Assembly (NCBI GenBank): GCA_030390025.1 | Contig: JASTWF010000033.1 | Coordinates: 1,180,001-1,244,000 of the forward strand | Source of the DNA: Squalus acanthias | Lineage: Eukaryota | Reading direction: 5' to 3' | Length of the DNA stretch: 64,000 nt | In this document: piece after piece, positions 25,088 to 62,838 of the stretch | How the letters are laid out: every line of letters begins with the position of its first letter | Numbering within the stretch: the stretch's first letter is position 1 | Translations under genes and position numbers: made by a program | The notes under the pieces: model-generated | What the model was told of the DNA's origin: nothing | The model's database searches: none | The model's input: the letters and a program-made list of their open reading frames with translations, nothing else

Positions 25088-25351
25088 GCTTACCTTCAGC
25101 GACTGGTGCACAAGGACACCCAGGTCTCGTTGCACTACCCCTTCTCCCAATCTATTGCCATTCAGATAATAGTCTGCCTTTCTGTTTTTGACACCAAAGT
25201 GGATAGCCTCGCATTTATCCACGTTATATGGCATCTGCCACGCTTCTGCCCACTCACCCAACCTGTCAAAATCATCCTGGAGTTTCTCGGTATCCTCCTC
25301 GCAGCATACACGCCAACCCAGCTTTGTGTTATCTGCAAACTTGGAGATATT

Positions 25352-26104: not shown

Positions 26105-29100
26105 ATTACATTTAGTTCCCTTATCTAGATCATTAATATATATTGTGAATAGCTGGGGTCCAAGAACCGTTCCCTGCGTTACCCCACTAGTCACTGCCTA
26201 CCACTCGGAAAAAGACCCATTAATTCCTGCTCTCTGCTTTCTGTCCGCCAACCAGTTCTCTATCCAAGTCAATACCTTGCCCCCAATCCTATGTGCCTTA
26301 ACTTTACACGCTAATCTCTTATGCGGGACCTTATCGAAAGCCTTTTGAAAGTCAAAATATACCACATCTACTGGTTCTCCCAGGTAAAGGTAAACTATTT
26401 TCCCAGTTACATCCTCAAAAAATTCCAGTAGATTAGTGAAGCACGATTTACCTTTTGTAAATCCATGTTGACTTTGTCCGATCCTGTCACTGTTTTTCAA
26501 GTGCTCAGCTATTACATCCGTTATAATGGATTCTAGCATTTTCCCCACTACCGATGTCAGCTTTACCGGTCTGTAATTCCCCGCTTTCTCTCTGCCACCC
26601 TTTTTGAATAGTGGGGTAACATTAGCTACCCTCCAATCCATGGGTACAGTTCCAGATTCCACCGAATGTTGGAAGATGATCAGCAATGCATATATTATTT
26701 CTAGGGTCACTTCCTTATTACCCTAGGATGTAGATTATCAGGCCGTGGGGATTTATCGGCCTTCAATCCCGTCAATTTCCTAAGACCATTTCCCTGCAAA
26801 TACTGATTGCTTTCAGTTCCTCCCTTTTATCAGACCCTATGTTCTCCAACATCTCTGGGAGCTTATTTGTGTCCTCCTTTGTGAAGACAGAACCAAAATA
26901 TGCATTTAATTGGTCTGCCATTTCTTTGTTCCCCAATATAACTTCCCCCACTTCTGACTGCAAGGGACCAACACTTGATTTCACTAATCTTTTTCTCTTT
27001 CCATATCTATAAGAGCTCTTACAGTCAGTTTTTATGTTCCCTGGAAGCTTACTTTCATATTCTATTTTCCCCTTCTTAATTAATCCCATTGTCCTCCTTT
27101 CTTGAATCCTAAACTGCTCCCAATCCTCAGGGTTACCGCTTTTTCTGGCCAATTTATATGCCCTCTCCTTGGATCTTATGCTATCCCTAATTTCCCTTTT
27201 TAGCCACGGTTGAGTCACCCTTTCTGTTTTATTCTTATGCCACGCTGGGATGAACAAATTATATAGTTCATCCATGCAGTGTTTGAATGTTTGCCATTGC
27301 CTATCCACCGTTAACCCTTTGAGTGGCATTACCCAATCAATCCTACCAAATTCACGCCTCATACCATCGTAGTTTCCTTTATTTAAATTCAGGACCCTAG
27401 TCTCTGATTCAATTACTTCACTCTCCATCCTAATGAAGAATTCTATCATATTATGATCACTCTGACCCAAGGGGCCTCGTACAACAAGATTGCTAATTAA
27501 TCCTTTCTTGTTACATAATACCCAGTCTAAGCTGGCCTGATCTCTGGCTGGTTCCTCAACATATTGTTCCAGAAAACCATCCCGTAAACATTCTAGGAAT
27601 TCTTCCTCCACAGTATTTTTACTAATTTGGTTAGCCCAATCTATATGTAATTTAAAGTCACCCATGATGACTGCTGTGCCCTTACTGCATGCTTCTCTAA
27701 TTTACCTTTTAATGCCGTCCCCAACCACCGTATTACTGTTTGGAGGTCTACATAACACTCCCACTAACGTTTTTTGCCCCTTGTTATTTCTCAGTTCTAC
27801 CCATACATATTCCGCATCATCAAAGTTACTATCCTTCCTTTCAATTATGTTAATCTCCTCTTTAACCAGCAATGCTACCACACCTCCCTTTCTTTTTTGC
27901 CTATCTTTCCTAAATATTGAACTCCCCTGGATGTTGAGTTCCCCGCCTTGGCCACCCTGGAGCCATATTTCTGTAATCCCAATCAAATCGTATTCATTTA
28001 CCTCTATTTGCGCAGCTAATTCATCCACCTTGATCCGAATTCTCCTTGCATTAAGACACAGAGCCTTCAGGCTTGTATTTTTAACGCTCTCAGACCTATA
28101 TGAATTATTATTTACTGTGACCATGTTTGATATAAACCGTTGAGTTCTTTGCCTTCTACTTTGGTTTTTCTCCTTCCTTTCTTTAGCTTTTATCCTTGTT
28201 TCCCTTTCCTCTGTCTCCCTGCTCAGGTTCCCAACTCCCTGCCACTTTAGTTTAAACCGTCCCCAACAGTACTAGCAAACACTCACCCTAGGACATCGGT
28301 CCCGGCCCTGCCCAGGTGCAGACCGTCCCGTTGGTACTGGTCCCACATCCCCCCGAACCGGTTCCAAACTCCAAGGAATTTGAATCCCTCCCCCTTGCAC
28401 CATTCCTCTAGCCAGGTATTAATTTGAAATGTCCTCCTATTTCTACTCTTACTAGCGCGTGGCACTGGTAGCAATCCTGAGATTACTACCTTTGATGTCC
28501 TATTTTTTAATTTACTTCCTAACTCCCTATATTCTGCTTTTAGGACGTAATCCCGTTTTTTACCTATATCGTTGGTGCCAATGTGCACCACGACAACTGG
28601 CTGTTCGCCCTCCCCCTCCAAAATGTTCTGTTGCCTCTCCGAGACGTCCATGGCCCTTGCACCAGGGAGGCAACACACCATCCTGGAGTCTCGATTGCGG
28701 CCGCAGAAACGCCTATCTATTCCCCTTAAAATTGAGTCCCCTACCACTATAGCTCTTCCACAATTTTTCCTCCCAGCCTGTGCAGCAGAGCCACTCATGA
28801 TGACAGAGAGCTGTTCTCATTGAAAGGTACAATTTTCTTGAAGTGCTTGAAAGGGTAGATTCTGAGAGGGTGTTTCCCCTGGCTGGAGAGTCTAGAACTA
28901 GGGGATAGAATCTCAGGATAAGGGATTATTAAATTATTAAATTAATAACATGAATCTAATGTGATAAAATAAGAACTGCTTTCATCACCATTAATTAACC
29001 CATAAGTTTCTTTTGAAGAATGAAAGAAATGAGAATATTCTCTGACTAGATGTTTTCAGACCATACACTGACCGATCTTTGTTCGGCCCCAAGTGGATGA

Positions 29101-29694
29101 TCTGACACTTGCCCGCATTGAACTCCATTAATCACAGTTCAGGGGAGATTTAATAGAGGTGTACAAAATTATGGGGGAATCAGTTTCCACTGACAGGAGT
29201 GTCACCAGGGCTTTGGGGGTAGAGCAGCGGAGTGGGAGTAATTGGTACCTCTTTCAAAGATGCTGCATCAATTGCTCATTTTAATCTGCGATTGGTAGAG
29301 TTTAGTTAAGCAAAGGTATTAAGGGATAATTGAATTCTGTGAGACACTTCATAAGTGTTCCTATTTTCATTAATTATCGCAGAACATTTTGTTGCACACT
29401 GCAGGAATTGCTAGTAGTTTGCAGAAACGCGGATTACATCTGCTGTTCTGAACCGAGGAAGCGCTGCAGGATCCTTGAATAATCTGTCACTATTCAACTG
29501 AAAGCAGCCGGAATGTGCAGCTTTGAGAGGGGCTTTCTGCACCGGCAGGGCTGGAAACGGCATTGAGCGAGCGACACTGTAGAGTTTTGAGTATGTACAG
29601 AACTGTACAGAGAAACAACAAAATTAACAGAACTTTGCTACACTGAATCACAAATGCGACTTGTTCTGCTATTTTATTGAACACGTTTTCAAAT

Positions 29695-29767
29695 TGTTCC
29701 AGTCGGGTTTCGAATGGGGAACATTCCGCGTGTTAGCTGAACGTGATAACCACTAAACTACAGAAAC
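29695..29767 (-). pseudogene. tRNA-Val(AAC) pseudogene
   Basis: Degenerate Val body in the duplicated unit. Confidence 0.7.
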
Positions 29768-30777
29768 TCTGTGCTAGGTTATCGGCTTCTGCGTTGAATC
29801 TATGGTTGTATAAAAAAAGTTAGTAAAGTTTGACTGTCACACGGAAATGTGTTCGCATTTCCTTCAGTGTGCAACAACAATTTTGGTGTGTTGATTAAAA
29901 CAATTATTAAGTGTCTCACAGACTTCAATTGTGTGGTCAAAACTGAAGTCCCTGAGTGGGAATCAAACCTGATTCATTCCTGTAATGGTAGGGTTGCCCA
30001 TTGAGGAGATCTTCAGTAGATTGGGCCTATATTGTCTGAAGTCCAGAAGAACGAGAGGTGTTCTCATTGAAAGGTACAATTTTCTTGTAGGGCTTGGAAG
30101 GGTAGACGCTGAGAGGCTGTTTCCCCTGGCTGGAGAGTCTAGAACTAAGAGATAGAGTCACAGGATAAGGGATTATTAAATTATTAAATGAATGACATGA
30201 ATCTAATGTGATAAAATAAGAACTGCTTTCATCACCATTAATTAACCCATAACCTTCTTTTGCAGAATGAAAGAAATGAGAATATTCTCTGATTAGATGT
30301 TTTCAGACCATACACTGACCGATCTTTGTTAGCCCCCAAGTGGATGATCTGACACTTGCCCGCATTGAACTCCATTAATCACAGTTCAGGATAGATTTAA
30401 TAGAGGTGTTCAAAATTATGGGGGGAATCAGTTTCCACTGACAGGAGTGTCACCAGGGCTATGGGGGTAGAGCAGCAGAGTGGGCGTAATTGGTACCTCT
30501 TTCAAAGATGCTGCATCAATTGCACATTTTAATCAGCGATTGGTAGAGTTTAGTTAAGCAAAAATATTAAGGGATAATTGAATTCTGTGAGACACTTCAT
30601 AATTGTTTCTATTTTCATTAATCAACCCACAACATTTTGTTGCACACTGCAGGAATTGCAAGTCGTTTGCAGAAACGCGGATTAGATCTGCTGTTCTAAA
30701 CGGAGGAAGCGCTGCATGATCCTTTAATAATCTGTCACTGTTCAACTGAGAGAGGCTTTCTGCACCGCCAGGGCTGG

Positions 30778-30832
30778 AAACCGGGACTTTTCGCGTGAAA
30801 AGCGAATGTGAAAACCACTACACTCCGGGAAC
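30778..30832 (-). pseudogene. 3'-truncated tRNA-Val-body pseudogene (loop reads TTC)
   Basis: cgggacttttcgcgtgaaaagcgaatgtgaaaaccactacactccgggaac; 3' end lost at a deletion junction. Confidence 0.65.
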
Positions 30833-31179
30833 CGCTGTGCTCATCTTTTCAACAGAGGGGAACTGACCAGTGCTGATTGGTACACCTTAAACGGCATCAC
30901 TCAATATAAAGGATGAGCTCACATATATCAGGCGCACTGCAGTCTGGTCAATGTCATCCCCTCCTTTCTTATTCAACAGAGGAAGAAGAGACATGAACGG
31001 GAGTCAGACGCCACAACCTTTAATTAAAGGCAAAAATAGGAGTAACACATACTTCCTAATCGTTTCACTGAAAAATTATTTCACTTGATGTAAAATTTGA
31101 CTGCCTTGAATCTGAAAATGAGCACTGTGGGATATTTTCTACACTACTGATTCTATTCACTGTGCGCAATGGCAGAGCG

Positions 31180-31252
31180 GTTTCCGTAGTGTAGTGGTTA
31201 TCATGTTCGCCTCATACGCGGGAGATCACCGGTTCGAGCCCGGGCAGAAACA
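31180..31252 (+). tRNA. tRNA-Val body with CAT anticodon, probably a pseudogene
   Basis: gtttccgtagtgtagtggttatcatgttcgcctCATacgcgg...ggttcgagcccgggcagaaaca. Confidence 0.75.
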
Positions 31253-32386
31253 TTACATTTGCCAGAATTTCATTCCTTGCAGTGACCAGTTCTGTCAATT
31301 TTAACAAAAGTTGCCCCAGGTTTCTGCTTTCAGAAGCAATTAACATTTTAAACGAGATTCCTAAAATACAATGTGTAAAATGAGATATGGTTAACAGTTC
31401 ATTACTTACAAAGTGCCAAATGCGTTATTGAAGTGTGTTTCGCCTTTCGTTCATTCTGTAAATTATTGAAATCGGTTATTTAATGGTGATTGCAAAGATT
31501 CAACTGCAAGTTGAATAGTGGCCGGCAAAACGAACGCTCTTTTAGGATCTGAACCGCGGACTTCTCTGAAATTTAAACAAACACCGAACCGAAAATCGGA
31601 CCCCGAGAACGCCGGTACAAACCTTGCCGAGTGAGTAGCTAATAATTGTAAAACCATTTTGTTTGTGTGGCTATTCTTGATGATCAGAGCACTTGAGACC
31701 GAGACAGTGTCTTTGCCTTTTCGCCTGTCTTCGGAAGCGCCGTCCGGTCCCACTCCTACAGTTAATGAGCTGTTAAGACGTTAATGCACCCAGGCTGCAG
31801 AAGGCTACACCAGGCGCAGCAGAGGAGTCTCTGCATTAGTTCTGCGTGGAAACTGTATTTTTCCCCTTCTCTCTTCCTCTTCTCTATATCCCTGTGCTTT
31901 TATTTCTCTATTTCAACCCCCGTCTCAGTTTCCTGAATCAGAACGTGGTGGGGACATTTTTAGAGACGCGCTTTTTTATTACTTATTGAAAGGAAACTCA
32001 GACGGACCGATTGAAACTGCAATTTGAATCCTGTCGCTAATCTAATGTTTTCCTATTAATCTGTGTTGTTCTCATTCCACATTCTCAATGAGAAAGTTCC
32101 CAGCCTCAATTTTGAAATACAATAAGGCCCATCTCTTATGTTAGCGACACGCGAGGGGAGATTCCCTGAATCAGCCCCAACTTTCCCCAAATCCTACTTA
32201 CAGTGCCGCAAACAAAACTGTGTCCTCTATGGGAAATATCAATGAGAATTACTTCACTCATTGTAACGCTGCCATGTGAATGGCTTAATTCACCTGTCAA
32301 TGCGTATTTTATTTATACTGAACCAATCATTCAAATTATTCCAGTTTTCATATTTAGTAAACTTGAATGGAGAAAAGGCATTAAAT

Positions 32387-32459
32387 TGTGTCTACCCACA
32401 TTCGAACCGTGGAGTTTTCGTGTGTTAGCGGAATGCTGTAACCACTACACACCAGAAAC
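32387..32459 (-). pseudogene. tRNA-Val pseudogene, highly degenerate
   Basis: ttcgaaccg...tttcgtgtgttag...taaccactacac...gaaac. Confidence 0.65.
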
Positions 32460-32902
32460 CCTCCAGCACTCGGGTGCATTGCAGCGACTCCATAGGAACA
32501 GGAGAAGGCCATTCAGCCCCTCGAGCCTGTTGCGCCATTCGATTAGCTCAGGGTTGATCTGTATCTTTTCATCATCTACCCGCTTTGTTTCCGTAACCCT
32601 TAATATCCTTACCCAACAAAAATCTATCGGCAGTAGCGGGAACCTTGAGCCTTAAACCAGCTGCACTCCCGGATCCAGACAGAAAAGGCTTCGTACTGAC
32701 GGAAACCCTGCAGATTAATGAATTACATTTCTGAACTTCAGGGCTTCTGAGATTCCAGGGTTTAAAAGGGAACAAAAGATGAAATGGGTCTCACTGTGGA
32801 TCAGTTTTCTCTCACTCAAATGTATCTGATTTGTGAAGTGAAATAAAGAACAATCAAAGAAAAAGGGAGAAGCCGCTGTCGCCCTGTTGACAGGAGAATA
32901 AA

Positions 32903-33030
32903 CAGTTCGAACGAAGGGTAATCGACTTAAAACGGTCATACTGATTCTTTATTCACAAATACTGCCCGACCTCTTGAGAATTTCCAGCATTTTCCGTTTC
33001 TATTTGAGATTTAAAGCATTTGCAATAATT
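32903..33030 (+). mobile_element. Old Penelope 3'-tail remnant with a decayed hammerhead motif
   Basis: cagttcgaacgaagggtaatcgacttaaaacgg and cacaaatactgcccgacctcttgagaatttccagcatttt align with the tail at 17411-17530. Confidence 0.6.
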
Positions 33031-33089
33031 TTCTTTTGTCATTTGCAATAAAACCGCTGGTTGTTCATCCACAGCAAGTTTAAACATAA

Positions 33090-33162
33090 TGTCCCCGCCC
33101 GGGTTCGAACGGGGGACCTTTCGTGTGCAAAGCGAACGTGATAACCACTACACTACGGGAAC
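33090..33162 (-). tRNA. tRNA-Val body with TGC anticodon, possibly a pseudogene
   Basis: Reverse complement GTTCCCG TA GTG TAGTGGTTAT CAC G TTCGC TT TGC AC ACGAA AGGTC CCCCG TTCGAAC CCGGG CGGGGAC A. Confidence 0.8.
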
Positions 33163-33358
33163 CGCTGTGCAGACAGCTTTACCAGAGGGGAACTGACCAG
33201 TGAACTCCCTCTGTGCTGACTGGTTCACCTCAAACAGCATCACTCAATACAAAGGATCAGCTCACAAATATCAGGCTCAGTGCAGTCTGGTCAATGTCAG
33301 CCCCTCCTTTCTTATTCAACAGAGGAAGAAGAGACATGAACGGGAGTCAGACGCCACA

Positions 33359-34349
33359 CACAGCGCTGACACTCTGGAGTTCAGAGAACGCACAGCGTTA
33401 AGACTACTTATTTCAGAGAATACACAGCGCTAACACTCCCGAGTTCAGAGAACCCACAGCGTTAACACCACTGATTTCAGTGAACGCACAGCGCTAACAC
33501 TCTGGAGTTCAGAGAACGCACAGTGCTAACACCACTGATTTCAGGGAACGCACAGCGCTAACACTCTGGAGTTCAGAGAACGCATAGCGCTAACAGTACT
33601 TATTTCAGAGAACGCACAGCGCTAACACTCCCGAGTTCACAGAACCCACAGCGTTAACACCACTGATTTCAGGGAACGCACAGCGCTAACACTCTGGAGT
33701 TCAGAGAACGCATAGCGCTAACACTACTTATTTCAGAGAACGCACAGCGCTAACTAACTGGAGTTCAGAGAATGCACAGCACCAACACACTGGAGTTCAG
33801 AGAATGCACAGCGCTAACACTACTTATTTCAGAGAGCGCACAGCACCAACACACTGGAGTTCAGAGAATGCACAGCGCTAACACTACTTATTTCAGAGAG
33901 CGCACAGCACCAACACACTGGAGTTCAGAGAATGCACAGCGCTAACACTACTTATTTCAGAGAACGCACCGCGCCAACACACTGGAGTTCAGAGAATGCA
34001 CAGCTCTAACACACTGGAGTTGAGAGAATGCACAACACTAATACTACTTATTTCAGAGAACGCACAACACTAACACGACCGAGTCCAGAGAACGCACAGC
34101 GCTAACACACTGGAGTTCAGAGAATGTACAGCGCTAACACTACTTATTTCCGAGAACGCACAGTGCTGACACACTGGAGTTCAGAGAATGCACAACACTA
34201 ACACTACTTATTTCAGAGAACGCACAACACTAACACGACCGAGTTCAGAGAATGCACAGCGCTAACACACTGGAGTTCAGAGAATGTACAGCGCTAACAC
34301 TGCTTATTTCAGCGAACGCACAGTGCTGACACACTGGAGTTCAGAGAAC
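33359..34349. repeat. 32-bp minisatellite (~31 units), two mostly alternating variants
   Basis: Unit cacagcgctaacac[tctggag|tacttat]ttcagagaacg; period 32 (starts 33359, 33391...). Confidence 0.95.
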
Positions 34350-34541
34350 TAGGCTCCAGACGCTCCTGTTTCGAGGTGCATGCGAGGCCAGGATGGTGTG
34401 CACATATGTGGAAGTACTCAATCCCTGCCAATATATACATCGGTCAATTCCTGCTGTTCTATGGGATGATGCCTTGCTCCAGGGAAGTGGACCATTATTG
34501 CTCTCCTCCATCACCCTGCCAAATATGCAGACTTAACTTAC

Positions 34542-34641
34542 TCTGGAAACCATTTGGAATGCTCCTTCCATGGAGCAGCGCCTTCTTCCCAGTTTGCTAA
34601 GCTCCCACCACAGGAAAAGCACTGGACTTTATCCTTGATAC
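34542..34641 (-). CDS. NAIP: NAIP-like gene, coding exon 2 (100 bp, second half of BIR2)
   Basis: cag|GTATCAAG...CCAGA|gtaagt; reads (G)[32 protein letters not shown] (Cx2Cx16H), in phase with the exon at 43512-44115; absent from the ORF track. Confidence 0.9.
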
Positions 34642-35169
34642 CTGTTGGATGAGTAGTTAGGAACAATCATGGCTGGATAGGAAATTCTAGTTCGATGTTT
34701 CAGCCAACAGTCAGCGCTCTCTTGGTGAACCTGGCTTGTGATCAACAATTCCATTATTTGCTGGGTGTCGCATGTCATGAGGGATGAGGTGGTCTGATGG
34801 GTTAGAACACTGCACTATCACCTCTAGAACTTAGAGTTTCAAAAAGAAATCTTCCCTGCATGATGATTGTAGGATTTCTACCTAGAATGTGTTGGGACAA
34901 TCACAATATCACAACAACAACTTACATTTATATGGTGCCTTTAACGTAATAAATCATCACAAGGCGCTTCACAGGAGCATTAATAAAATACAAAATTTGA
35001 TACCTAGCCATATAATCATGGAATCATAGAAATTTACAGCACAGAAGGAAGCCATTCGGCCCATCTTGTCCGTGCCGGTCGACAAAGAGCTATCCACCCT
35101 ACTCCCACTTTCCAGCACTTGGTCCGTAGCCTTGTAGCTTACGGCACATCATGTCCATATCCAAGTACT

Positions 35170-35565
35170 TTTTAACGAATATGAGGAGATGTTAGTGCAT
35201 ATAGCCAAAAGCTTGATCAAAGAGGCAGGTTTTAAGGAGCACCTTAAAAGAGCAAAGAGAGGTAGCGAGGCGGAGAAGTTTAGGGAGGGAATTCCTGAGC
35301 TTAGGGCCTAGGCCGCTGAAGGCACGGTCGACAATCGTGGAGCAATTAAATTCAGGGCTGTTAAAGGGGCCAGATTTGGCAGAGCACAGATATCTCGGGG
35401 GATTATAGGGCTGGAGAAAATTACAGAGATAGGGAGGGGCGAGGCCATGGAGGGATTTGAAAACAAGGATGAGAATTTTAAAATCGAGGTGTTGCTTAAC
35501 TGGGAGACAATGTAGGTCAGTGAGCACAGGGGAGATGGGTGAACAGGACTTGGTGCGAGTTAGGA
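35170..35565 (-). mobile_element. L2-clade LINE 3' fragment
   Basis: ORF 35192-35527 LTDLHCLPVKQHLDFKILILVFKSLHGLAPPYL..RAFS..GPKLRNSLP. Confidence 0.8.
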
Positions 35566-38500
35566 CATAGAGTCATAGAGTCATAGAGTTATACAGCACA
35601 GAAAGAGACCCTTCGGCCCATCGTGTCCGCGCCGGCCATCAAGCCCTGTCTATTCTAACCCCATTTTCCAGCACTTGGTCCATAGCCTTGTATGCTGTGG
35701 CTTTTCAAGTGCTCATCTAAATGCTTCTTGAATGTTGTGAGGTTTCCTGCATCTACCACCCTTTCAGGCAGTGAGTTCCAGATTCCAACCACCCTCTGGG
35801 TGAAAAAGCTTTTCCTCAAATCCCCTTTAAACCTCCTGCCCCTTAACTTGAAACTATGCCCCCTTGTTATTGACCCCTCTACTAAGGGGAAACGTTCATT
35901 TCTATCTACCTTATCTATGCCCCTCATAATTTTGTACACCTCAATCAGGTCCCCACTCAGCCTTCTCTGCTCCAAGGAAAACAACCCCAGCCTGTCCAGT
36001 CTCTCTTCATAGCTGAAGCGCTCCAGCACAGGTAACATCCTGTTGAATCTCCTCTGCACCCTCTCCAATGCAATCATATCTTTCCGAGAGGGTGGCGACC
36101 AGAACTGCACACAATATTCCAGCTGTGGCCTAACTAGAGTTTTGTACAGCTCCATCATAACCTCCCTGTTCTTATATTCTATGCCTCGGCTAATGAAGGC
36201 AAGTATCCCATATGTCTTTTTAACCAGCTTATCTACCTGTCCTGCTGCCTTCAGGGATCTATGTACATGCACACCAAGTTCCCTTGATCCTCTGTCCTTC
36301 CTATGGTCCTACCATTCATTGTGCATTCCCTTGCCTTGTTAGTCCTCCCAAAATGCATCACCTCACATTTTTCACGGTTAAATTTCATTTGCCACTGTTC
36401 TGCCCATCTGACCAACCCGTCTATATCTTCCTGTAGCCTGAGGCTTCCCTCCTCGCTATTTACCACTCCACCAATTTTCGTGGCATCTGCGAACTTACTG
36501 AACATACCTCCTACATTCATATCTAAATCATTAATGTACACTACAAACAGCAAAGGACCGAAACAGATCCCTCCGATACACCACTGCACACAGGCTTCCA
36601 GTCACAAAAACAACCTTCGACCATCACCCTCTGCCTCCTGCCACTAAGCCAATTTTGGATCCAATGTGCCAAGTTGCCCTGGCTCCCATGGGCCCTTATC
36701 GTCTTGACTAGTCTCCCATGCAGGATTTATCAAAACCCTTACTGAAGTCCATGTAGAGCACATCAACTGCACGACCCTCATCCACACACCTAGTCACCCC
36801 CTCGAAAAATTCAATCAAATTGGTCAGACATGATCTCCCTCTGACAAAGCCATGGTGACTATCCTTGATTAATCCTTGCCTCTCCAAGTGGAGACTAATT
36901 CTGTCCCTCAGAATTTTTTCCAATAATTTCCCTGCCACTGATGTTAGGCTCACTGGCCTATAATTCCCTGGTTTATCCCTACTACACTTCTTGAATAATG
37001 CTACTACGTTAGCTGTTCTCCAGTCCTCTGGCACATCTCCTGTGGCCAGAGAGGTTCTGAAAATTTGTGTCAGAGCCCTTAGAATCTCCTCCCTTGCCTC
37101 ATAAAGCAGCCTGGGACACATCTCGTCTGGGACTGGGGATTTATCCACTTTTAAGCCCGCTAAAACCCCTAGTACCTCCTCCCTCTCAATACTAATTTGT
37201 TGAAGTATATCACAATCCCCCTGTCTAATTTATATGCCTACCTCGTCCTTCTCCATAGTGAACACAGATGCAAAATATACATTTAAACCCCCACCTACAT
37301 ATTTTAGGCTCTACACACAAATTGCCACTTTGGTCCCTAATGAGCCCTACTCTTTCCCTGGTTATCCTCTTGCCCTTAAAATACTTATAAAACACCTTGG
37401 GATTTTCCTTTATTTTGCCTGCCAGTGTTATTTCATGCCCCCCTTCGCTCTCCTAATTTCTTTTTTATATAGCCCCCTGCACTTTCTATACTCCTCTAAG
37501 GCTTCGACTGTTTTAGTCCTTTGTATCTGCCAAAAGCCTCACTTTTTTTTCCTACTCCATTCTCGTATATCCCTTGACTTCCATGGTTCCCTGGGCTTGT
37601 TGGTCCCACCCTTGACATTTACGGGAACATGTTGCCGTTGTAATCTATCTATTTCCTTTCTGAAAGACTCCCACTGCACTGATGTGGATTTTCCCACAAG
37701 TAGCTGATCCCAGTTCACTTTGGCCAGATCCTGCCTTATCATATTAAAATCGGCCTTCCCTCAATTTAGAACGTTTATTTCCGTTCCATCTTTGTCCTTT
37801 TCCATGACTACCTTAAATCTCACCGAATTATGGTCACTGTCAACAAAATGCTCTCCTACTAACTCTTCTACCACTTGCCCGGCTACATACACTAGAATTA
37901 GGTCCAGTACCGCGCCCTCCCTTGTAGGACTTTCTGCATGCTGGCTCAAAAAGGTCTCCTGGATGCACTTTAAGAATTCTGCACCCTCTAAGCCTTTCAC
38001 ACTCTGACTATCCAAGTTAATAGTGAGGAAGTTGAAATCCCCTACTATTATTACCCTATTAGTTCTACACTTCTCTGAGATTTGCCTACATATCTGTTCC
38101 TCTATCTCCCCCTGATTGTTTGGGGGCCTATAGTACACTCCCAGCAAAGTGCTTGCCCCCTTTTTGTTTTTAAGTTCTACCCATACGGCCTCATTAGAGG
38201 AGCCTGCTAAGATATCATCCCTCCTCATAGCAGTAATTGACTCCTTGATTAATATTGCGACACCACCGGCTCTTTTACACCCCCATCTGTCTCGCCTGAA
38301 GATTCTATACCCCGGAATATTGAGCTGCCAGTCCTGCCCCTCCCTCAACCATGTCTCTGTGATAGCAACAATATCATACTCCCATGTGTTCATAAACACC
38401 TTCAATTAATCTGCCTTACTCGCAAGAATCGTTGCATTAAAATAAATGCCACCAGACTTGCCATACTCCCTTGTGCCGTTACATATTTGCTCTGCCTTTC

Positions 38501-39640
38501 AGGCTGACTTGTTTTTTCCCCTAAAGTTGGCTGTGCATCAACCCCTACTGTAGCTCCACTCCATATCCCATCCCCCTGCCAACTTAGTTTAACCCCCCGC
38601 CTCCCCAACAGTACGAGCAAATCTCCCCGCAAGGAATTTGTTCCCGTTCCAGTTCAGGTGCAACCCGTCCGACTTGTACAGGTCCCACCTTCACCAGAAG
38701 CAGACCCAGTGATCCAGGAAACTAAAGCCCTCCCTCCTGCACCAACTCTTTAGCCACGCATTCATCAGCTCTATCCTCCTATTCCTATACTCACTAGCAC
38801 GTGGTACCGGGAGTAATCCAGAGATTACAAACTTTGAGGTCCTGCTTTTTAATCAGCTACCTAGCTCCTTAAATTCTTGTTGCAGGACCTCATCCGTCTT
38901 TCTACCCATGTCGTTGGTAGCAATGTGAACCACGACCTGTGACTGTTCGCCCTCCCCATTCAGAATGCCCTGCAGCCGTTCAGTGACATCCTTGACCCTG
39001 GCACCAGGGAGGCAACACTCCATCCTGGAGTCACGTCTGCGGCCACAGAAACGTCTATCTGTTCGCCTTACGATAGAATCCCCTATTACTATTGCTCTCC
39101 CACTCTTTTTCCTCATCTCCTGTGCAGCTGAGCCACTCGTAGTGCCACGGACTTGGCTCTTGCTGCATTCCCCTGAGAAACCATCTCCCCCATCAGTATC
39201 CAAAACGGAAATCTGTCAGAGAGGGAGATGGACTCAGGGGACTTCTGCACTACCTTCCTACTTCTTTTATTCAGTCTGGCGGTCATCCTTTCCCTGTCTG
39301 CCTGTGCACTCTTTACCTGCGGTGGGACCACATCGTTTAACGTGCTATCTGCGTAGATCTCAGCTTCGCGGATGCTCCACAGTGACTCCAGCCACAGCTC
39401 CAGCTCTGAAACGCGGATTTGGAGTAGCTGCAGCTGGTAACACTTACCTGTACATGTGTTCGCCCTGGACACCTAAAGTGCCCCTGACTTCCAACATAGC
39501 ACAGGAGGGGCACTCCACGCTGCCGAGCTGACCTGCCATGTCCTACCCTTAATTTACTCCCTTTAAATTTAAGAATATTAAATACACTAGGGACGTTACT
39601 TCCCTTTAAACGCTACTTACTCTAAACGAGAGCCCTTACT
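35566..39640 (-). mobile_element. Near full-length degenerate CR1 LINE (same family as 6905-9835) in the NAIP intron
   Basis: ORF1 ATG at 39539, esterase motifs 38853-39203, EN 37761-38405, RT 36708-37148, 36251-36589, 35655-36272, (tatgactc)n tail. Confidence 0.92.
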
Positions 39641-39814
39641 TTCACGTTTATGGAGGGCGGAACTAGGGTGGCCGGCCAGCAGTGCGTTTGAATAGTCAAG
39701 TCAAGTCATCATCAATAACAGAAATCATTGTCAGAAATCTTGTCCAAAGGGGACAATAGAGCAAAGGGCGCAGTAAAGTTTGAGCATATCAGCAATTCTA
39801 GTATAAAAACGATT

Positions 39815-42040
39815 AAGAGGCACTAACAACGGTGCAAAGAAGATTTACAAGGATGATACCCGGACTGCGAGAGTATACCTATCAGGAAAGTATGAACAGC
39901 CTGGGTCCCTTTTCTCTTGGAAAGAGAAGGCTGAGGGGTGACCTAATAGAGGTCTTTAAAATGATGAATGGTTTTGATAGATTGGATACAGAGAGTGTGT
40001 TTAAATACATACTTTGGTTCTGTCTTCACAAAGGAGGACACATATAACCTCCCAGAGATTTCGGGGAACATAGGGTCTAATGAGAGGGAGGAACTGAATG
40101 AAATCAATATTTGTAGAGAAATGGCGTTAGGGAAATTGACAGGATTGAAGGCCGATAAATCCCCAGGGCCTGATAATCTACTTCCTAGGGTAATTAAGAA
40201 AGTGGCCCTAGAAATAGTAGATGCATTGATGGTCATCTTCCAAAACTCTATAGACTCTGGAACAGTTCCCATGGATTGGAGGGTAGCTAATGTAACCCAA
40301 CTATTTAAAAAAGGTGATAGAGAGAAAACGGGGAATTATAGACCGGTAAGCCTGACATCGGGCGAAATGCAAGAGTCCATTATAAAAGATGTAATAGCAG
40401 AACAGTTGAAAAACAGTGACAGGATCGGACAAAGTCAACATGGATTGACAAAAGGTAAATCATGCTTGACTAATCTAATGGAATTTTTTGAGGATGTAAC
40501 AAGTAGAATAGATAAGGGAGAACCAGTGGATGTGGTGTGTTTGGAGTTTCAGAAGGCTTTCGATAAGGTCCCGCATAAGAGATTAGCGTGCAAAATCAAA
40601 GCACATGGGTATGGGGGTAAGGTACTGACTTGGGTAGAAAACTGTTTGGCAGACAGGAAGCAAAGAGTTGGAATAAACGAGTCTTTTTCCAAGTGGCAGG
40701 AAGTGACTAGTGGGGTACCGCAGGGATTGGTGCTAGGACCCCAGCTATTCACAATATATATTAATGATCTAGATGAGGGAACTAGATGTAATATCTCTAA
40801 GTTTGCAGGCGACACAAAGCTGGGTGGGTGTGTGTGCTGTGAGGAGCATGCAGAGAAACTCTAGTACGAATTGGACAGGTTGGGTGATTGGGCAGATACA
40901 TGGTAGATGTGTGGATAAATGCGAGGTTATCCACTTTGGGGGGCAAAAACAGGAAGGCAGATTAGTATTTGAACGGCAATAGATTGGGAAAAGGGGAAGT
41001 GCAACTAGACCTGGGTGTCCTTGTGCACCAGTCGCTGAAGGTAAGCATGCAGGTGCAGCAGGCGGTTAAGAAGGCAAATGGTACGTTGGCCTTCATAGCG
41101 AGAGGATACAAGTACAGGGGCAAGGATGTCTTGCTGCAGTTGTACAGTGCCTTGGTGAGACCACACCTTGAGTATTGTGTGCAGTTTTGGTCGCCTTATC
41201 TGAGGAAGGATGTTCTTGCCATGGAGGGAGTCAGCGAAGATTCACCAGACTGATACCTGGGATGGCAGGAATGATGTATGAAGAGAGATTGGGTCGATTG
41301 GGCTTGTATTCGCTAGAGATTAGAAGAATGAGAGGGGATCTCATTGAAACTTATAAAATTCTAACAGGACTAGACAGACTAGATGCACGAAGGATGTTCC
41401 CGATGGCGGAGGAGTCCAGATCCAGCGGGTCACAATCTAAAGATAAGGGGTAAGCCATTTAGGACTGAGATGAGGAGGAATTTCTTCACCCAGAGAGTGG
41501 TGAACCTGTGGAATTCTCCACCACAGAAGACAGTTGAGTCCAATTCATTAAATATATTCAATAAGGAGTTAGATATATTTCTTAAGGCTAAGGGGATCAG
41601 GGATATGGGGAGAAAGCCGGGACAGGGTACCTAAAATGGATGTTCAGCCATGATCGCATTGAACGGCGGAGCAGGCTTGAGGGGCCGAATGGCCTACTCC
41701 TGCTCCTATTTTCTTCTATGTTTCCACATGTGTGGAAGAGCAAAACTAGAGGCCATCAATATAAGATAGTCACCAAGAAATCCAGTAGGTAATTCAGAAA
41801 AACTTCTTTACTCAGAGAGTGGTGAGAATGTGGAACTCGATACCACAGGGAGTGGTTGAGGCAAATACTATAGATGAATTTAAGGGGAAGCTAGATAAGC
41901 ACAGGAAGGAGAAGGGAATAGAGGTGCTGGTAGAGTTAGATGAGGAAGGATGGGAGGAGGCTCGAGTGGAGTGTAAACGCCGACATGGGCTGATTGGGCT
42001 GAATGGCCTGTTTCTGTGCTGTACATTCTATGTAATCCTA
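39815..42040 (+). mobile_element. 5'-truncated CR1 (~40000-41720) nested in an older CR1 3' fragment
   Basis: ORF 39968-40864 RT (SGVPQGLVLGP, KFAGDTK); the host fragment resumes at tttccacatgtg ~41721. Confidence 0.85.
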
Positions 42041-42356
42041 TGCATTCATGAAGTTGGAAACAAGGAGAGGTTTGGGTATGTTGGCGGGGCAAAGGGGAAT
42101 TAACTGGTAGAGTGTCTATTCTTCATAGAAACACAGGAACATAGGAAATTCTAGACTAAAAAAGATCTAGTCCATCTAGTCCGCCTTCTACCATCCTGGT
42201 AGTCGCAAGATACAACGTCAGTGGAATTGTTGACCAATCGTGGCAATCAATCTCCATCAATGAGTCTACAACAGACTCAGACATGAGGCGAGGAAAACCC
42301 CCAGTGGTTCGAGATCTTTGGGAACCAGAGGTCCAAAGTAAAATGCTCCTCCCGAA

Positions 42357-43433
42357 CATAGAGTCATAGAGTTATACAGCACAGAAAGAGGCCATTCGGC
42401 CCATCGTGTCCGCGCCGGCCATCAAGCCGTATCTATTCTAATCCCATTTTCCAGCACTTGGTCCGTAGCCTTGTATGCTGTGGCGTTTCAAGTGCTCATT
42501 TAATGCTTCTTGAATGTTGTGAGGGTTCCTGCCTCTACCACCCTTTCAGGCAGTGAGTTCCAGATTCCAACCACCCTCTGGGTGAAAAAGCTTTTCCTCA
42601 AATCCCCTTTAAACCTCCTTCCCCTTACCTTGAAACTATGCCCCCTGGTTACTGACTCCTCTACTAAGGGAAAAAAGCTCCTTTCTATCTACCCTAACTA
42701 TGCCCCTCATAATTTTGTACACCTCAATCAGGTCCCACCTCAGCCTTCTCTGCTCTAAGGAAAACAACCCCAGCCTCTCAATCTCTCTTCATAGCTGAAG
42801 CGCTCCAGCCCAGGTAACATCCTGGTGAATCTCCTCTGCACCCTCTTCAATGCAATCACATCCTTCCTATAGTGTGGCGACCAGAACTGCACACAGTATT
42901 CCAGCTGTGGCCTAACTAGCGTTTTGTACAGCTCCATCATAACCTCCCTGCTTTTATATTCTATGCCTCTGCTAATGAAGGCAAGTATCCCATATGCCTT
43001 TTTAACCACCTTATCTACCTGTCCTGCTGCCTTCAGGGATCTATGTACATGCACACTAAGGTCCCTCTGATCCTCTGTCCTTCCTAGGGTAATACCATTC
43101 ATTGTGTATTCCCTTGCCTTGTTAGTCCTCCCAAAATGCATCACCTCACACTTTACAGGGTTAAATTCCATTTGCCACTGTTCTGCCCATCTAACCAACC
43201 CGTCTATATCGTCCTGCAGCCTGAGGCTTCCCGCCTCGCTATTTACCACTCCACCAATTTTCGTGTCATCTGCGAACTTACTGATCATACCTCCTACATT
43301 CATAGCTAAATCATTAAAGCACACTACAAACAGCAAAGGACCCAGCACCGATGCCTGCGGTACACCACTGGACACAGGCTTCCAGTCACAGAAACAACCT
43401 TCGACCATCACCCTCTGCCTCCTGCCACTAAGC
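42357..43433 (-). mobile_element. 5'-truncated CR1 LINE
   Basis: ORF 42755-43456 (SGVPQASVLGP, KFADDTK), (tatgactc)n tail. Confidence 0.9.
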
Positions 43434-43511
43434 ACGCCGCACTCACCACACATCATGTCTCCGATTACTCATATACTGTCTCCCAATGTGTTATTTGCTG
43501 ATTGTCAATAC

Positions 43512-44115
43512 CTGTAAAGAAAAATCCTGCTTTTGCCAGTAGATCAGGCTCCATCTTCACGTAGAAAGGCCAGCCTTTGAAGGTCTCAAGTCTGGCTTGT
43601 CGCCCTTTTAACTGTTCCGCTCGGTTGAGCGGAACACCCTCAGGTACCTGGACCCGCACAGCATACTTTGGAATGTTTCCAACATCCAACGTTTTCACAA
43701 AGCCACAGTCCGGCTCAAACTTCTGATGCTCTGACCCGGGTGATTTTGTGATGCCGGTACTGCAGGAAACTCCCCCACAGCAGAAGCATTGCACACTCAT
43801 CTTCAACCCCGTGTAATAAAAGTCCACGCTCGCCATCTCCTCGGGATTCCAGGTGGCAAAGGGATCGAAGCTCTCAAAGGTCTTGAGTCTCTTCAGTTCA
43901 CTTCTCATCTGATGGTTGAAGCCTCTCTTCCTTTTCCGGCAAATCACATGGTCGTCGATTTCAATCTGCTCCACCAATTTAGCTATGTCCAAGTTGGTGA
44001 AAGACATAATCGCCTGCAGATCCTTAACATCTAACTGACGATGGTGGGTCGAAGGCTCAGCTTCTTGTGTTTCCTTTGCTGTCTGAGGCAATGAGTCAGA
44101 GTGCTGGGTCGCCAT
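43512..44115 (-). CDS. NAIP: NAIP-like gene, first coding exon (N-terminus, BIR1, first half of BIR2)
   Basis: tag|accATGG; MATQ...GFNHQMRSELKRLKTF...CFCCx16Hx6C...DVGNIPKY...ARLETFKGWPFY...AGFFFT-G|gtatt donor; strongly resembles the mammalian NAIP N-terminus. Confidence 0.9.
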
Positions 44116-44369
44116 GGTCTAGATATCAAAGAGCAGAGGTTAATCGATTATCTGAACGTGACGCAGCCAAGTGAGGAGATTGACCAGAATGGCACCAGGG
44201 ATGCGGGACTTCAGTTATGTGGAGAGACTATCGTGGAACTGGGGTTGTTCTCCTTAGAGCAGAGAAGGTTAAGGGAAGATTTGATAGAGGTGTTCAAACT
44301 CATGAACGGTTTTTGTTGGAGCCAATTGGGGGAAACCATTTCCACTGGCAGGAGGGCCGGTAACAGAGA

Positions 44370-45428
44370 GTTGGGATAAATCGGTCATTTTCAGGTTGGC
44401 AATCAGTAACTAGTGGGGTGCCACAGGGATCAGTGCTGGGGCCTCAACTACTTACAATCTATGTTAATGACTTGGATGAAAGGACCGTGTGTACTGTAGC
44501 CAAATTTGCTGATGATACAAAGATAGGTGGGTTAGCAAGTTGTGAGGAGGACACAAGTCTGCAAAGGGATATAGATAGGTTAAGTGCGTGGGCAAAAATT
44601 TGGTAGATGGATTATAACGTGGGAAAGTGTGAGGATATCCACTTTGGAAGGAAGAATGAAAAAGAAAATTATTTTTTTAAATGGAGTGTGACTACAAAAT
44701 GCTGCGGTACAAAGGGATCTGGGGGTCCTAGTACATGAAACACAACAAGTTTGCAAGTAATTAGGAAGGCTAATGGAACGTTGGCCTTTATTGCAAGGGG
44801 TATGGAGTATAAAAGTAGGGAAGTTTTGATGCATCTTTACAGGGCGCTGGTGAGACCGCACCTGGAGTACTGCGTACAGTTTTGGTCTCCATATTTAAGG
44901 AAGGATATACTTGCATTGGAGGCAGTGCAGAGAAGGTTCACTAGGTTGATTCCTGGGATGAAGGTGTTAACGTATGATGAAAGGTTGAGCAGGTTGGGCC
45001 AATACTCATTGGAGTTTAGAAGAATGAGAGGTGATCTTATTGAAACATAGAAGATTCTGAGGGGGATTGACAGGGTGGATGCTGAGAGGATGTTTCTCCT
45101 ATTGGGGATATCAAGAACTAGGGGGTAGAGTTTCAGAGTAAGAGGTCGCCCATTTAAGACGTAGATGAGGAGGAATTTCTTCTGTCAGAGGGTCGTGAAT
45201 CTTTGGAATTCTCTACTCCAGAGAGCTGTGGAGGCGGAGTCATTGATTATATTCAAGGCGGAGATTGATAGACATTTTAACTACAAGGGAGTCAAGGATT
45301 ATTGGGAGAGAGCGGGAATGTGATGTTGAGGCCAAGATTGGATCAGCCATGATCTTATTGAATGGTGGAGCAGGCTCGAGGGGCCGATTGGCCTACTCCT
45401 GCTCCTATTTCTTATGTTCTTATGTTCT
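44370..45428 (+). mobile_element. 5'-truncated CR1 LINE
   Basis: VPQGSVLGP, KFADDTK, LEYCVQFWSP; (tatgttct)n tail. Confidence 0.9.
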
Positions 45429-45702
45429 TAACCAGAGGACCACAGATTTGAGATAATTGGCAAAGGAACCAGAGGGGGAGAAGATGAGAAATTCTGTTAC
45501 ACGGCGAGTTGTTGTGATCAGGAACGTGCGACCTGAAAGGGCGGAGGTAGCAGATTCAATAGTAGCTTTCAAAAGGGAATTGGAGAAATACTTGCAGGGC
45601 TATGGGGAAAGAATCATGGAATGGCTACAGCACAGGAGGAGGTCATTCGGCCCGTCGAGCCCGTGCCGGCTCTCGGCAAGAGCACTTCAGCTCGGCCCAC
45701 TC

Positions 45703-45760
45703 CCGCTCAACTGAGCTGAGCAGTTGAAAGGGAAACAAGCCAGACTTGAGAACTTTAAAG
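45703..45760 (+). pseudogene. Diverged 58-bp inverted copy of part of the NAIP exon
   Basis: ccgctcaactgagctgagcagttgaaagggaaacaagccagacttgagaactttaaag aligns without gaps to the reverse complement of 43575-43632. Confidence 0.75.
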
Positions 45761-46421
45761 ACCAGGGGAGTGGGTCTAATTGGATAGCTCTTTCAAAGAG
45801 CCAGCACAGTCACGATGGGCCAAATTGCCTCCTTCTGTGCTGTACCATTCTATGATTCTATCAAAACGCACATCAGAGAGAGGAAGACATGAAGCATCAA
45901 TATTAAATATAACCAATGTGATTATAAATAATATCAATATGATCTTATATTGAAGCAAATAACCTTGTGGAGGATGTTTTTTTTATTATTTCACTTGATG
46001 TGGGTGTCGGTGACAAGGCCAGCATTTAATGCCCATTCCTCGTTGCCCTGGAGAAGGTGGTGGTGAGCCGCCTTCTTGAACCGCTGCAGTCCGTGTGGTG
46101 AAGGTACTCTCACAGTGCTGTTAGGGAGGGAGTTCCAGGATTTTGACCCAGCAATATCAAATATTAAAGAAAAAATAATTTCCTTCTGCCTACTGCCATT
46201 TGCCAAAATGTACGAGGCAGAAGGAAAACGCAAATCTACCCCAGTGTCTTGCTTCGTCTGGGCTGAGGCATTTTCCGTAACTTACGGTCCTGACCATCAG
46301 GCCATTGCACAATTACCTGTAAAATAAGGCCTAAGTGGGAAAAGGAGTGTCATCAGAAAGTAACATACTTAACTGTTTCATATGAACACAAGAAATAGGA
46401 ACAGGAGTAGGCCGCTTGGTC

Positions 46422-49345
46422 CTGCACTGTCTGTGCTGCACTGTCGGAAGGGCTGTACTGAGGGAGCGCTGCACTGTCGGGGGGGCTGTACTGAGGGAGC
46501 GCTGCACTGCCAGAGGGGCTGTACTGAGGGAGCGCTGCACTGTCGCGGGGGCTGAACTGAGGGAGCGCTGCACTGTCGTAGGGGCTGTACCGAGGGAGCG
46601 CTGCACTGTCGCGGGGGGCTGTACTGAGGGAGCGCTGCACTGTCGAAGGGGCTGTACTGAGGGAGCGCTGTACTGTCGGAGGGGCAGTACTGAGGGAGTG
46701 CTGCACTGTCGGAGGGGCAGTGCTAAGGGAGCGCTGCAGTGTCCGAGGGACTGTACTGAGGGAGCGCTGCACTGTCGGAGGGGCAGTGGTGAGGGAGCGC
46801 TGCACTGTCCGAGGGGAAGTACTGAGGGAGCGCTGCACTGTCGGAGGGGCTGTCCTGAGGGAGCGCTGCACTGTCGGAGGGGCTGTACTGAGAGAGCGCC
46901 GCACTGTCGGAGGGGCTGTACTGAGGGAGCGCTGTACTGTCGGAGGGGCAGTACTGAGGGAGTGCTGCACTGTCGGAGGGGCAGTACTGAGGGAGTGCCC
47001 CACTGTCAGTGGGAAAGTACTGAGGGAGCGCCGAACTGTCGGAGGGGCAGTACTGAGGGAGTGCGGCACTGTCGGAGGGGCAGTACTGAGGGAGTCTCCC
47101 ACTTTCGGTGGGGCAGTACTGAGAGAGCGCTGCACTGTCGGAGAGGCAGTACTGAGGGAGTGCTGCACTTTCGGAGGGGCAGCACTGAAGGATGCATCAC
47201 TGTCCGAGGGGCAGCACTGAGGGAGTGCTGTACTGTCGGAGGGGCAGTACTGAGGGAGTGCTGCAATGCTGCACTGTCGGAGGGGCAGTACTGAGGGAGC
47301 GCCGCACTGTCGAGGGGCAGTACTGAGGGAGCGTCGCACTGTCGGAGGGGCAGTACTGAGCGAGTGCTGCACTGTCGGATGGGTAGTACTGAGGGAGTGC
47401 TGCACTGTCGGAGGAGCAGCACTGAGGGAGTGCTGTAATGTCGGAGGGGCAGTACTGAGGGAGTGCTGCAGTGCTGCACTGTCGGAGGGGCAGTACTGAG
47501 GGAGCGCCGCACTGTCGAGGGGCAGTACTGAGGGAGCGTCGCACTGTCGGAGGGGCAGTACTGAGGGAGTGCTGCACTGTCGGATGGGTAGTACTGAGGG
47601 AGTGCTACACTGTCGGAGGGGTAGTACTGAGGGAGCGCCGCACTGTCGGAGGGCCTGTACTGAGGGAGCGCCGCACTGTCGGAGAGGCAGTAGTGAGGGT
47701 GTGCTGCACTGTCGGATTTGCAATGCTGAGGGAGTGCTGCACTGTCGGAGGGGCAGTACTGAGGAAGTGCTGCACTGTCGGAGGGGCAGTACTGAGGGAG
47801 TTCTGCAGTATCGGAGGGGCATTACTGAGGGAGCGCTGCACTATCGGAGGGGCAGTACTGAGGGAGTGCTGCAGTGTCGGAGGGGCAGTACTGAGGCAGC
47901 GCTGCACTGTCGGAGGGGCAGTTCTGAGGTAGTGCTGCACTGTCAGAGTGGCAGTACTGAGGGAGCGCCGCACTGTCGGAGGGCCAGTACTGAGGGAGCG
48001 CCACACTGTCGGAGGAGCAGTAGTGAGGGAGTGCTGCACTATCGGATTTGCAATGCTGAGGGAGTGCTGCACTGGGGGAGGGGCAGTACTGAGGTATTGC
48101 TCCACTGTCGTAGTGGCTGTACTGAGGGAGCGCTGCACTGTCGGGGGGGCTGAACTGAGGGAGCGCTGCACTGTCGTAGGGGCTGTACCGAGGGAGCGCT
48201 GCACTGTCGGGGGGGCTGTACTGAGGGAGCGCTGCACTGTCGAGGGGGCTGTACTGAGGGAGCGCTGCACTGTCGGAGGGGCAGTGCTAAGGGAGCGCTG
48301 CAGTGTCCGAGGGACTGTACTGAGGGAGCGCTGCACTGTCGGAGGGGCAGTGGTGAGGGAGCGCTGCACTGTCCGAGGGGAAGTACTGAGGGAGCGCTGC
48401 ACTGTCGGAGGGGCTGTCCTGAGGGAGCGCTGCACTGTCGGAGGGGCTGTACTGAGGGATCGCTGTACTGTCGGAGGGGCAGTACTGAGGGAGTGCTGCA
48501 CTGTCGGAGGGGCAGTACTGAGGGAGTGCTGCACTGTCGGAGGGGCAGTACTGTGAGAGCGCTGCACTGTTGGAGGGGCAGTACGGAGGGAGTGCTGCAA
48601 TTTCGGAGGGGCAGCACTGAAGGATGCTGCACTGTCCGAGGGGCAGCACTGAGGGAGTGCTGAGGGAGTGCTGCAGTGTTGCACTGTCGGAGGGGCAGTA
48701 CTGAGGGATTGCTGCACTGTCGGATGGGCAGTACTGAGGGAGTGCTGCACTGTCAGAGGGTCAGTACTGAGGGAGTGCCGCACTGTCGGAGGGCCAGTAC
48801 TGAGGGAGCGCCGCACTGTCGGAGGGCCAGTACTGAGGGAGCGCCGCACTGTCGGAGTACCAGTAGTGAGGGAGTGCTACATTGTCGGATTTGCAATGCT
48901 GTGGGAGTGCTGCACTGTCGGAGGGGCAGTACTGAGGCAGTGCTGCAGTGTCGGAGTGGCAGTACTGAGGGAGCGCTGCACTATCGGAGGGCCAGTACTG
49001 AGGGAGCGCCGCACTGTCGGAGGGGCAGTAGTGAGGGAGTGCTTCACTGTCGGATTTGCAATGCTCTGGGAGTGCTGCACTGTGGGACGGGCAGTACTGA
49101 GGTAGTGCTGCACTGTCGGAGGGGCAGTACAGAGGGAGTGCTGCAGTGTTGGAGGGGCAGTACTGAGGGAGCGCTGCACTATCGGAGGGGCAGTACTGAG
49201 GGAGTGCTGCAATGTCGGGGGCAGTACTGTGGGAGCGCCGCAATGTCTGAGGGGCGGTACTGAGGGAGTGCTGCACTATCAGAGGGCCAGTACTGAGGGA
49301 GTGCTGCACTGTCAGAGGGGCAGTACTGAGGGAGTGCTGCGCTGT
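46422..49345. repeat. 33-bp tandem satellite (~2.9 kb)
   Basis: Unit gcactgtcggaggggcagtactgagggagcgct. Confidence 0.97.
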
Positions 49346-62765: not shown

Positions 62766-62838
62766 TGCCGAAATCCGGGATCGAACCAGGGACCTTTAGA
62801 TCTTCAGTCTAACGCTCTCCCAACTGAGCTATTTCGGC
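62766..62838 (-). tRNA. tRNA-Phe(GAA), near intact
   Basis: Reverse complement GCCGAAATAGCTCAGTTGGGAGAGCGTTAGACTGAAGATCTAAAGGTCCCTGGTTCGATCCCGGATTTCGGCA. Confidence 0.95.

Follow-up and report, generated by a model that had tools for sequence, protein, structure and literature searches.

The window analysed here, a 64,000-nt stretch of the Squalus acanthias contig JASTWF010000033.1 (positions 1,180,001-1,244,000 of the forward strand), carries on its minus strand two coding exons that belong to the 5' end of a gene of the NAIP family. The first coding exon (43512..44118, minus strand) consists of 3 nt of 5' untranslated region and 604 coding nt, which start with the ATG at 44115-44113, encode the pre-BIR region, BIR1 and the first half of BIR2, and end at 43512 with the donor GTATTG (phase 1). 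A pyrimidine tract and an acceptor AG precede it (44119..44140, minus strand), recognized from the sequence and from the end of contigs of one public run, X12, at 44118; the AG lies at 44120-44119, which puts the start of the exon at 44118 and implies a further, non-coding exon upstream. The second coding exon (34542..34641, minus strand, 100 nt) follows an acceptor ...CCAACAG ending at 34642, encodes the second half of BIR2 as far as ...HSKWFP, and closes with the donor GTAAGT (phase 2). Spliced together, the two exons give 704 nt and 234 codons with no stop. The intron between them (34642..43511, minus strand) is a GT-AG intron of 8,870 nt filled with decayed copies of long interspersed nuclear elements (LINEs): tblastn matches of the retroelement open reading frames (ORFs) of the window cover 72% of it, 86% is repetitive, and RVT_1 or Exo_endo_phos was found in four of the five intron ORFs scanned. 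One of these five, 42758-43468, is at the exon 1 end of the intron.

Both exons match the Pfam BIR family (exon 1, E 9e-19; exon 2, E 9e-11). BIR1 (residues 76-141; 43693..43890, minus strand; PF00653, E 9e-19) has a complete Cx2Cx16Hx6C zinc site at residues 110-137, with ligands C110, C113, H130 and C137, whereas BIR2 has only C209, C212 and H229, the fourth ligand being missing. The exon coordinates, phases and in-frame splice of an earlier sequence-only reading of this DNA were recovered exactly, and so were its intact BIR1 zinc site, its BIR2 short of the last Cys and its 8.9-kb LINE-filled intron; the Asp that it saw in place of Gly in the BIR1 A(A)GFY motif is residue 98 (codon 43822..43824, minus strand).

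By sequence comparison, the peptide is descended from NAIP and not from cIAP or XIAP. The best four PDB matches are mouse and human NAIP (E 6e-57 to 5e-54), with XIAP next (1e-13); the NAIP structures score ~150 bits and are colinear from residue 23-27 to 201, against 54 bits for XIAP. For the exon 2 peptide too, NAIP BIR2 is the best match, with 67-85% identity to the BIR2 half of NAIPs (tblastn, among the matches listed). A search for longer proteins returned 29 matches, 27 of which are named NAIP or BIRC1-like or carry the NAIP domain set. Seven shark NAIP models were matched, with 54-71% identity over the first exon, lengths of 1182-1428 aa and both BIR and NACHT domains in all: GCB78372.1 (Scyliorhinus torazame), XP_078061637.1 (Mustelus asterias), XP_041034989.1 (Carcharodon carcharias), and those of Stegostoma, Rhincodon, Hemiscyllium and Cetorhinus. 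The others are sturgeon, amphibian, lungfish, reptile and bird NAIPs, one XIAP and one unnamed RING inhibitor of apoptosis protein (IAP). None closer than model P0006 was found among the best 150 of 2520 matches in a 50%-representative protein search, and the annotated proteins of the host shark include none near to the window peptide.

A quick maximum-likelihood search was run in IQ-TREE on 28 rows, with a single XIAP on a long branch as the outgroup and P0020, P0023 and P0029 left out. In this tree, the window peptide falls inside an eight-row shark NAIP clade (Shimodaira-Hasegawa-like approximate likelihood ratio test (SH-aLRT), 99), and its nearest neighbour is Scyliorhinus, with weak support (80). 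The window peptide is colinear with the shark models over pre-BIR, BIR1 and BIR2, and the ...KWFP boundary that closes window exon 2 is also where the S. torazame model departs from the alignment. Unlike those models, with their 1182-1428 aa and NACHT domain, the window holds residues 1-234, with the changes G98D, F117S, D223A and D224A. XIAP, cIAP1/2 and RING-type IAPs have the BIR fold in common with it (35% identity to fish XIAP over 137 aa); XIAP, however, has no match to the pre-BIR region and is placed apart from the NAIP rows by the tree, and with XIAP P0028 as tblastn query only the two BIR exons were matched in the window at E under 0.5.

Thus the preference of the sequence-only reading for NAIP over cIAP/XIAP, and its attribution to a cartilaginous fish, are upheld by the protein search and phylogeny that it had called for: the peptide groups with NAIPs, apart from XIAP, and within the shark clade. 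The novelty that it implied for a cartilaginous-fish NAIP does not hold. NAIP in sharks is already known, with full-length models annotated in the seven cases above and with statements in print: in the portions of text available, NLRC4 is described as present in sharks together with NAIP (PMC11258412), and BIRC1 and NLRC4 orthologues are listed for the whale shark (PMC8455134). The available part of PMC9680067 holds nothing further on shark NAIP, and in PMC4067322 NAIP is merely a funding acronym. A search that covered few subscription journals found no publication on how many NAIP copies sharks have or on truncated shark NAIP.

The remaining NAIP exons were searched for across the window, and hence as far as 34.5 kb downstream of exon 2, where the window ends. 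With 29 proteins as tblastn queries, exons 1 and 2 alone were found over the 64 kb; two linked pieces beside them, of 19.6 and 21.2 bits, were rejected as sum-statistics artefacts. Profiles were also made from 19 NAIPs as 47 tiles of 30 residues and searched against the 3,057 stop-to-stop segments of at least 12 aa in the window. Among the 39 tiles for BIR3, NACHT and leucine-rich repeats (LRR) (residues 241-1410), 37 scored no higher than 13.2 bits (E no better than 0.008) across the window, and the remaining two, from BIR3, match just the two known exons. A held-out NAIP (P0001), a positive control unsplit by introns, scored at least 25 bits in 31 of those 37 tiles and 47 bits for the tile right after exon 2. 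Very short exons could be missed by such a search; the NACHT region could not escape it. In place of three BIR domains the window therefore has one complete motif, one without its last Cys and no BIR3 exon, and NACHT, HD1-WHD-HD2 and LRR were not found within its 64 kb, with positive controls that worked, in agreement with the earlier report of no BIR3, NACHT or LRR exon downstream.

A third exon that could supply the missing Cys was also sought. Downstream, there are 14 in-phase YAG-R-TGY sites, four with a pyrimidine tract, and none then continues as C-x-F/Y-L. If the second donor were left unused, a TAA one codon into intron 2 (34538..34540, minus strand) would be reached, giving a 235-aa product without the last BIR2 Cys. 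The sturgeon model P0020 carries, fused to NAIP, a PF06003 part, which we take to be SMN, and this part has no window match better than E 0.25.

Several residues that are near-invariant elsewhere are changed in the fragment. For comparison, 532 BIR domains from 171 proteins were aligned, of which 483 are intact, all but 2 of these covering the residue-98 column. Residue 98 is Asp, and the same column is Gly in 27/27 NAIPs and in 481/481 covered intact BIRs; the Gly of the A(A)GF(Y/F) motif is thus lost in BIR1 and kept in BIR2 (G197). Residues 223-224 (34574..34579, minus strand) are Ala-Ala, where Asp is found at 223 in 26/26 covered NAIPs and at 224 in 27/27; at large, Ala occupies column 223 in 8/483 intact BIRs. 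In the grooves of IAPs, the first Asp of this pair holds the N-termini of bound peptides. At position 117 the window has Ser, and 27/27 NAIPs have Leu, Phe or Met. Structure prediction for the first exon was too weak to judge G98D (mean predicted local distance difference test score 59.7, predicted template modelling score 0.46).

Copies of exon 1 from related organisms are available in public runs. Twenty runs share part of 43400-44300, each of them less than half of it, with some of the sharing due to the LINE sequence at the ends, and none of those listed is recorded as RNA; four (X1, X5, X9 and X12) were compared over 43350-44420. In the DNA runs of these relatives, exon 1 is 97% identical to the window and Gly98 is intact. 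In run X12 (organism B, guessed to be RNA), one contig of 607 nt corresponds exactly to 43512-44118, with 20 differences, and the cover of this run halts at 44118 (the bin mean of 36.9 equals a depth of 102 over 13 of 36 nt), whereas the DNA-like contigs of X1 and X5 continue to 44202, past the exon start. The X12 contig supports both splice sites and the expression of a relative, not of the window copy. X1 (organism A) has a 792-nt contig running intron-exon-intron and X5 (organism C) a 497-nt contig; X9, likewise guessed to be RNA, leaves exon 1 uncovered and is uninformative either way. A young 5'-truncated LINE begins at 43433, 78 nt past the first donor, and is 92-93% identical to 8757-9832 and 35574-36649; the X1 contig extends merely 17 nt across this junction.

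Since all three related copies (X1, X5 and X12) keep Gly98 and Phe117, G98D and F117S are derived in the window copy. The listed coding differences relative to these copies number 27, of which 12, six nonsynonymous and six synonymous, set the window apart from all three. At four of the six nonsynonymous sites (K61, N90, D98 and S117) other sharks mostly agree with the relatives, so the window state is the derived one. At conserved columns, the window peptide has the most deviations (3/61) among the eight shark rows.

The exons lie in an island of ~20 kb (33362..53662), a putative duplicated segment with no tRNA or vault RNA match inside, which is set in an array of tRNA and vault RNA genes. 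Downstream of the fragment, 1..33361 is an array of duplicated tRNA/vault RNA units with LINE and Penelope-like insertions; upstream, 53663..64000 is a related tRNA array. The two flanks match each other at 13058-16794 and 53666-57355 (89% identity) and at 109-2866 and 56703-59484 (88%). Searches with ARAGORN and Rfam gave 22 distinct RNA polymerase III (Pol III) gene matches, 13 to the left of 33362, 9 to the right of 53662 and none in the island; the chance of such an empty gap is 2e-4 under uniform placement, a figure that is descriptive only, since the boundaries were set post hoc and the genes are clustered. The sequence-only reading had a minisatellite and a tRNA array downstream of the exons; both are present, but the array flanks the fragment on both sides.

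Both edges of the island interrupt array-related sequence. The left flank is homologous to three other array units as far as 33361, where a 1-kb minisatellite starts (33359..34349, with 32/64/160-bp periodicity), at the putative downstream breakpoint. An intact array unit at 30900-31165 matches the same three units ~150 nt further, and the left edge therefore cuts an array unit. At the upstream end of the island, 52755..53662 is a unique, CpG-richer stretch (observed/expected CpG 0.73 and 0.91 in two 500-nt bins, against 0.38-0.61 over 44100-52599), which from its composition may be a promoter of the island or hold a first exon.

Other features of the island and array were also seen. A GC-rich minisatellite with a 33-bp unit and ~88 copies (46435-49350) lies upstream of the first coding exon and is a source of long spurious ORFs. 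Three vault RNA matches (4080-4155, 19292-19380 and 21866-21944; Rfam RF00006, 47-67 bits) are within duplicated units, and because these units also carry tRNA genes, the vault RNA was co-amplified with the tRNA array. Decayed reverse-transcriptase elements of a second type, which we take to be Penelope-like, are at 109-2866, 16136-17103 and 56703-59484 and were duplicated along with the array. A recent ~2-kb tandem duplication (59603-64000, 94% identity) contains tRNA-Tyr/Ile, Glu and Phe matches. ARAGORN also predicts a 73-nt tRNA with anticodon TCA (selenocysteine) at 14489-14561; it resembles the tRNA-Met unit at 31180 and, judging by this, is more likely a mutated array copy. No paper on shark tRNA/vault RNA arrays was found among the matches listed.

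Taken together, these features make it likely that the fragment is a decaying, 3'-truncated duplicate of NAIP, that is, an unprocessed pseudogene, with an intron at a conserved position and the later exons absent from the window. A block of ~20 kb from a whole NAIP gene would have been duplicated into the tRNA array, at the DNA level because the intron is retained, and the duplication would have broken at the minisatellite, ~190 nt into intron 2. Constraint would later have been lost, with changes gathering at near-invariant residues. Any protein made from it would stop after residue 235; its BIR1 would be damaged, its BIR2 could not bind zinc, and the NACHT, helical and LRR parts would be lacking, so that it would not be expected to assemble an NLRC4 inflammasome. 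In mouse NAIP2, according to the portion of PMC5938239 available, pre-BIR and BIR1 help to bind the rod protein, HD1 is also needed for this, and inflammasome formation requires the part that runs from WHD through LRR; with such domain needs, the window fragment could not signal. On the features examined, the fragment is thus a member of the NAIP family by descent and not a working sensor. The partial duplicate or pseudogene proposed in the sequence-only reading is supported by the later exons absent from the window, by G98D and D223A/D224A, and by the island structure.

Some observations weigh against decay. All four splice sites are canonical and there is no frameshift. The 3/61 deviations at conserved columns fall inside the 0-6 range of all 28 rows. 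The 6:6 ratio of nonsynonymous to synonymous changes in the window is no faster than the 10:5 among the related copies (Fisher p 0.45), and it is lower than expected from a neutral nonsynonymous share of 79% (p 0.024, from only 12 sites). It is indistinguishable from a transition-only share of 66% (p 0.19); 12 sites are too few for a ratio of nonsynonymous to synonymous rates to tell neutral change from constrained. The exon search, moreover, ended at the window edge.

This last point, together with the open frame, the canonical splice sites and a first intron already swollen by LINEs to 8.9 kb, would fit the 5' end of a whole NAIP gene with a second intron longer than 34.5 kb that contains the tRNA array, and with its remaining exons beyond the window. 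However, the exons are flanked on either side by related array, which the island edges interrupt, and even a whole gene would look damaged with G98D and D223A/D224A. The NAIP gene of another shark is compact, most of it lying within a 29-kb contig in S. torazame (P0007), and the human gene spans ~62 kb by the coordinates given in the available part of PMC2685007, so that a single intron of more than 34.5 kb is out of scale. A whole gene of this kind is therefore considered unlikely.

A functional short paralogue made of pre-BIR and BIR1, with or without the partial BIR2, could have a decoy or regulatory role, for instance if it bound bacterial rod protein but left NLRC4 untriggered. The open frame with its 6:6 ratio is compatible with this, as are the candidate promoter inside the island, the contribution of pre-BIR and BIR1 to ligand binding in mouse NAIP2, and the possible regulatory role suggested for BIR-only mouse NAIP3/4 in the accessible text of PMC3376732. 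However, the invariant Gly of BIR1 is lost, the probably expressed related copy in X12 has Gly98, no downstream acceptor supplies the last BIR2 Cys in a BIR-like context, and HD1 is also needed for ligand binding by NAIP2 (PMC5938239, in the part available). Nor was a short shark relative found among 75 near-length and 2 shorter candidates: the near-length search gave one protein, P0030 (200 aa, 44%), encoded on a contig of 1.4 kb and grouped with lizards by the tree, and the shorter-protein search returned no natural short form. The short BIR-only paralogue that the sequence-only reading had offered as an alternative is accordingly weak, and we regard it as improbable. Short BIR-only NAIP-like models are annotated in lungfish (P0013, 387 aa) and beluga sturgeon (P0200, 195 aa); their accessions adjoin those of long NAIP models, and they may be split annotations or similar fragments. 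Least probable is a truncation created by an assembly misjoin of a NAIP locus to the tRNA array at the minisatellite, for while the junction falls in a tandem repeat of 1 kb with multi-copy sequence to either side, where misjoins are common, the window has zero N, the return to the same array family at the upstream edge would need a second misjoin, and the residue changes are independent of the join.

A truncated duplicate of NAIP has parallels in mammals. NAIP3 and NAIP4 are members of the tandem NAIP cluster of the mouse. They are reported, in the portion of PMC3376732 available, to have BIR domains only, unlike the window copy, in which no more than a single BIR is complete, and even this one is altered. 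In human, one full NAIP and four partly deleted copies are described, two of them 3'-deleted (PMC2685007, in part). These two, psi-NAIP1 and psi-NAIP2 (5q13.2), likewise keep the 5' part and are assumed to be pseudogenes, and so form a precedent for a truncated duplicate in the window; they lie, however, in segmental duplications of the parent locus, whereas the window copy is in a tRNA/vault RNA array. A partial human NAIP copy also occurs in a fusion transcript, as stated in the accessible part of PMC12721320.

The public runs also hint at how common copies of exon 1 may be. In X5, the exon contig has a depth of 462 and the flanking contig 525; the exon depth is ~39 times the median of 12 in 22 short LINE-variant contigs, and minor exon variants appear at depths of 49-77. 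X1, with 126 million letters in all and no record longer than 16.8 kb, looks like a shallow DNA run, yet the exon is whole in it at a depth of 26. There is about an even chance that these depths reflect tens of near-identical copies of exon 1 in the related organisms, given that contig depth is not copy number, that the LINE yardstick is indirect, and that pooled samples or enrichment could mimic the effect. The annotated sharks have one NAIP model each in the clusters examined, and two in Hemiscyllium. As the related organisms appear to hold many near-identical exon copies, the window copy is probably a remnant left by an amplification across the lineage. A much stronger form of this, in which one shark lineage has tens of near-identical NAIPs, far beyond the handful in mice and with some of them expressed and whole, is speculative and rather unlikely on the sequence evidence.

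As it stands, the finding is of small import, since shark NAIP and NLRC4 and human partial NAIP duplicates are already known; it indicates that the NAIP locus also yields truncated copies in a shark, here into an array of Pol III genes. NAIP paralogues determine which bacterial proteins the NLRC4 inflammasome detects. Were the large family real, it would be an expanded sensor set for bacterial flagellin and secretion-system proteins, and the window fragment would be a dead member carried into the tRNA array. If the depth hint is right, tens of NAIP copies within one shark lineage would allow the diversification of sensor specificity to be followed in a natural setting.

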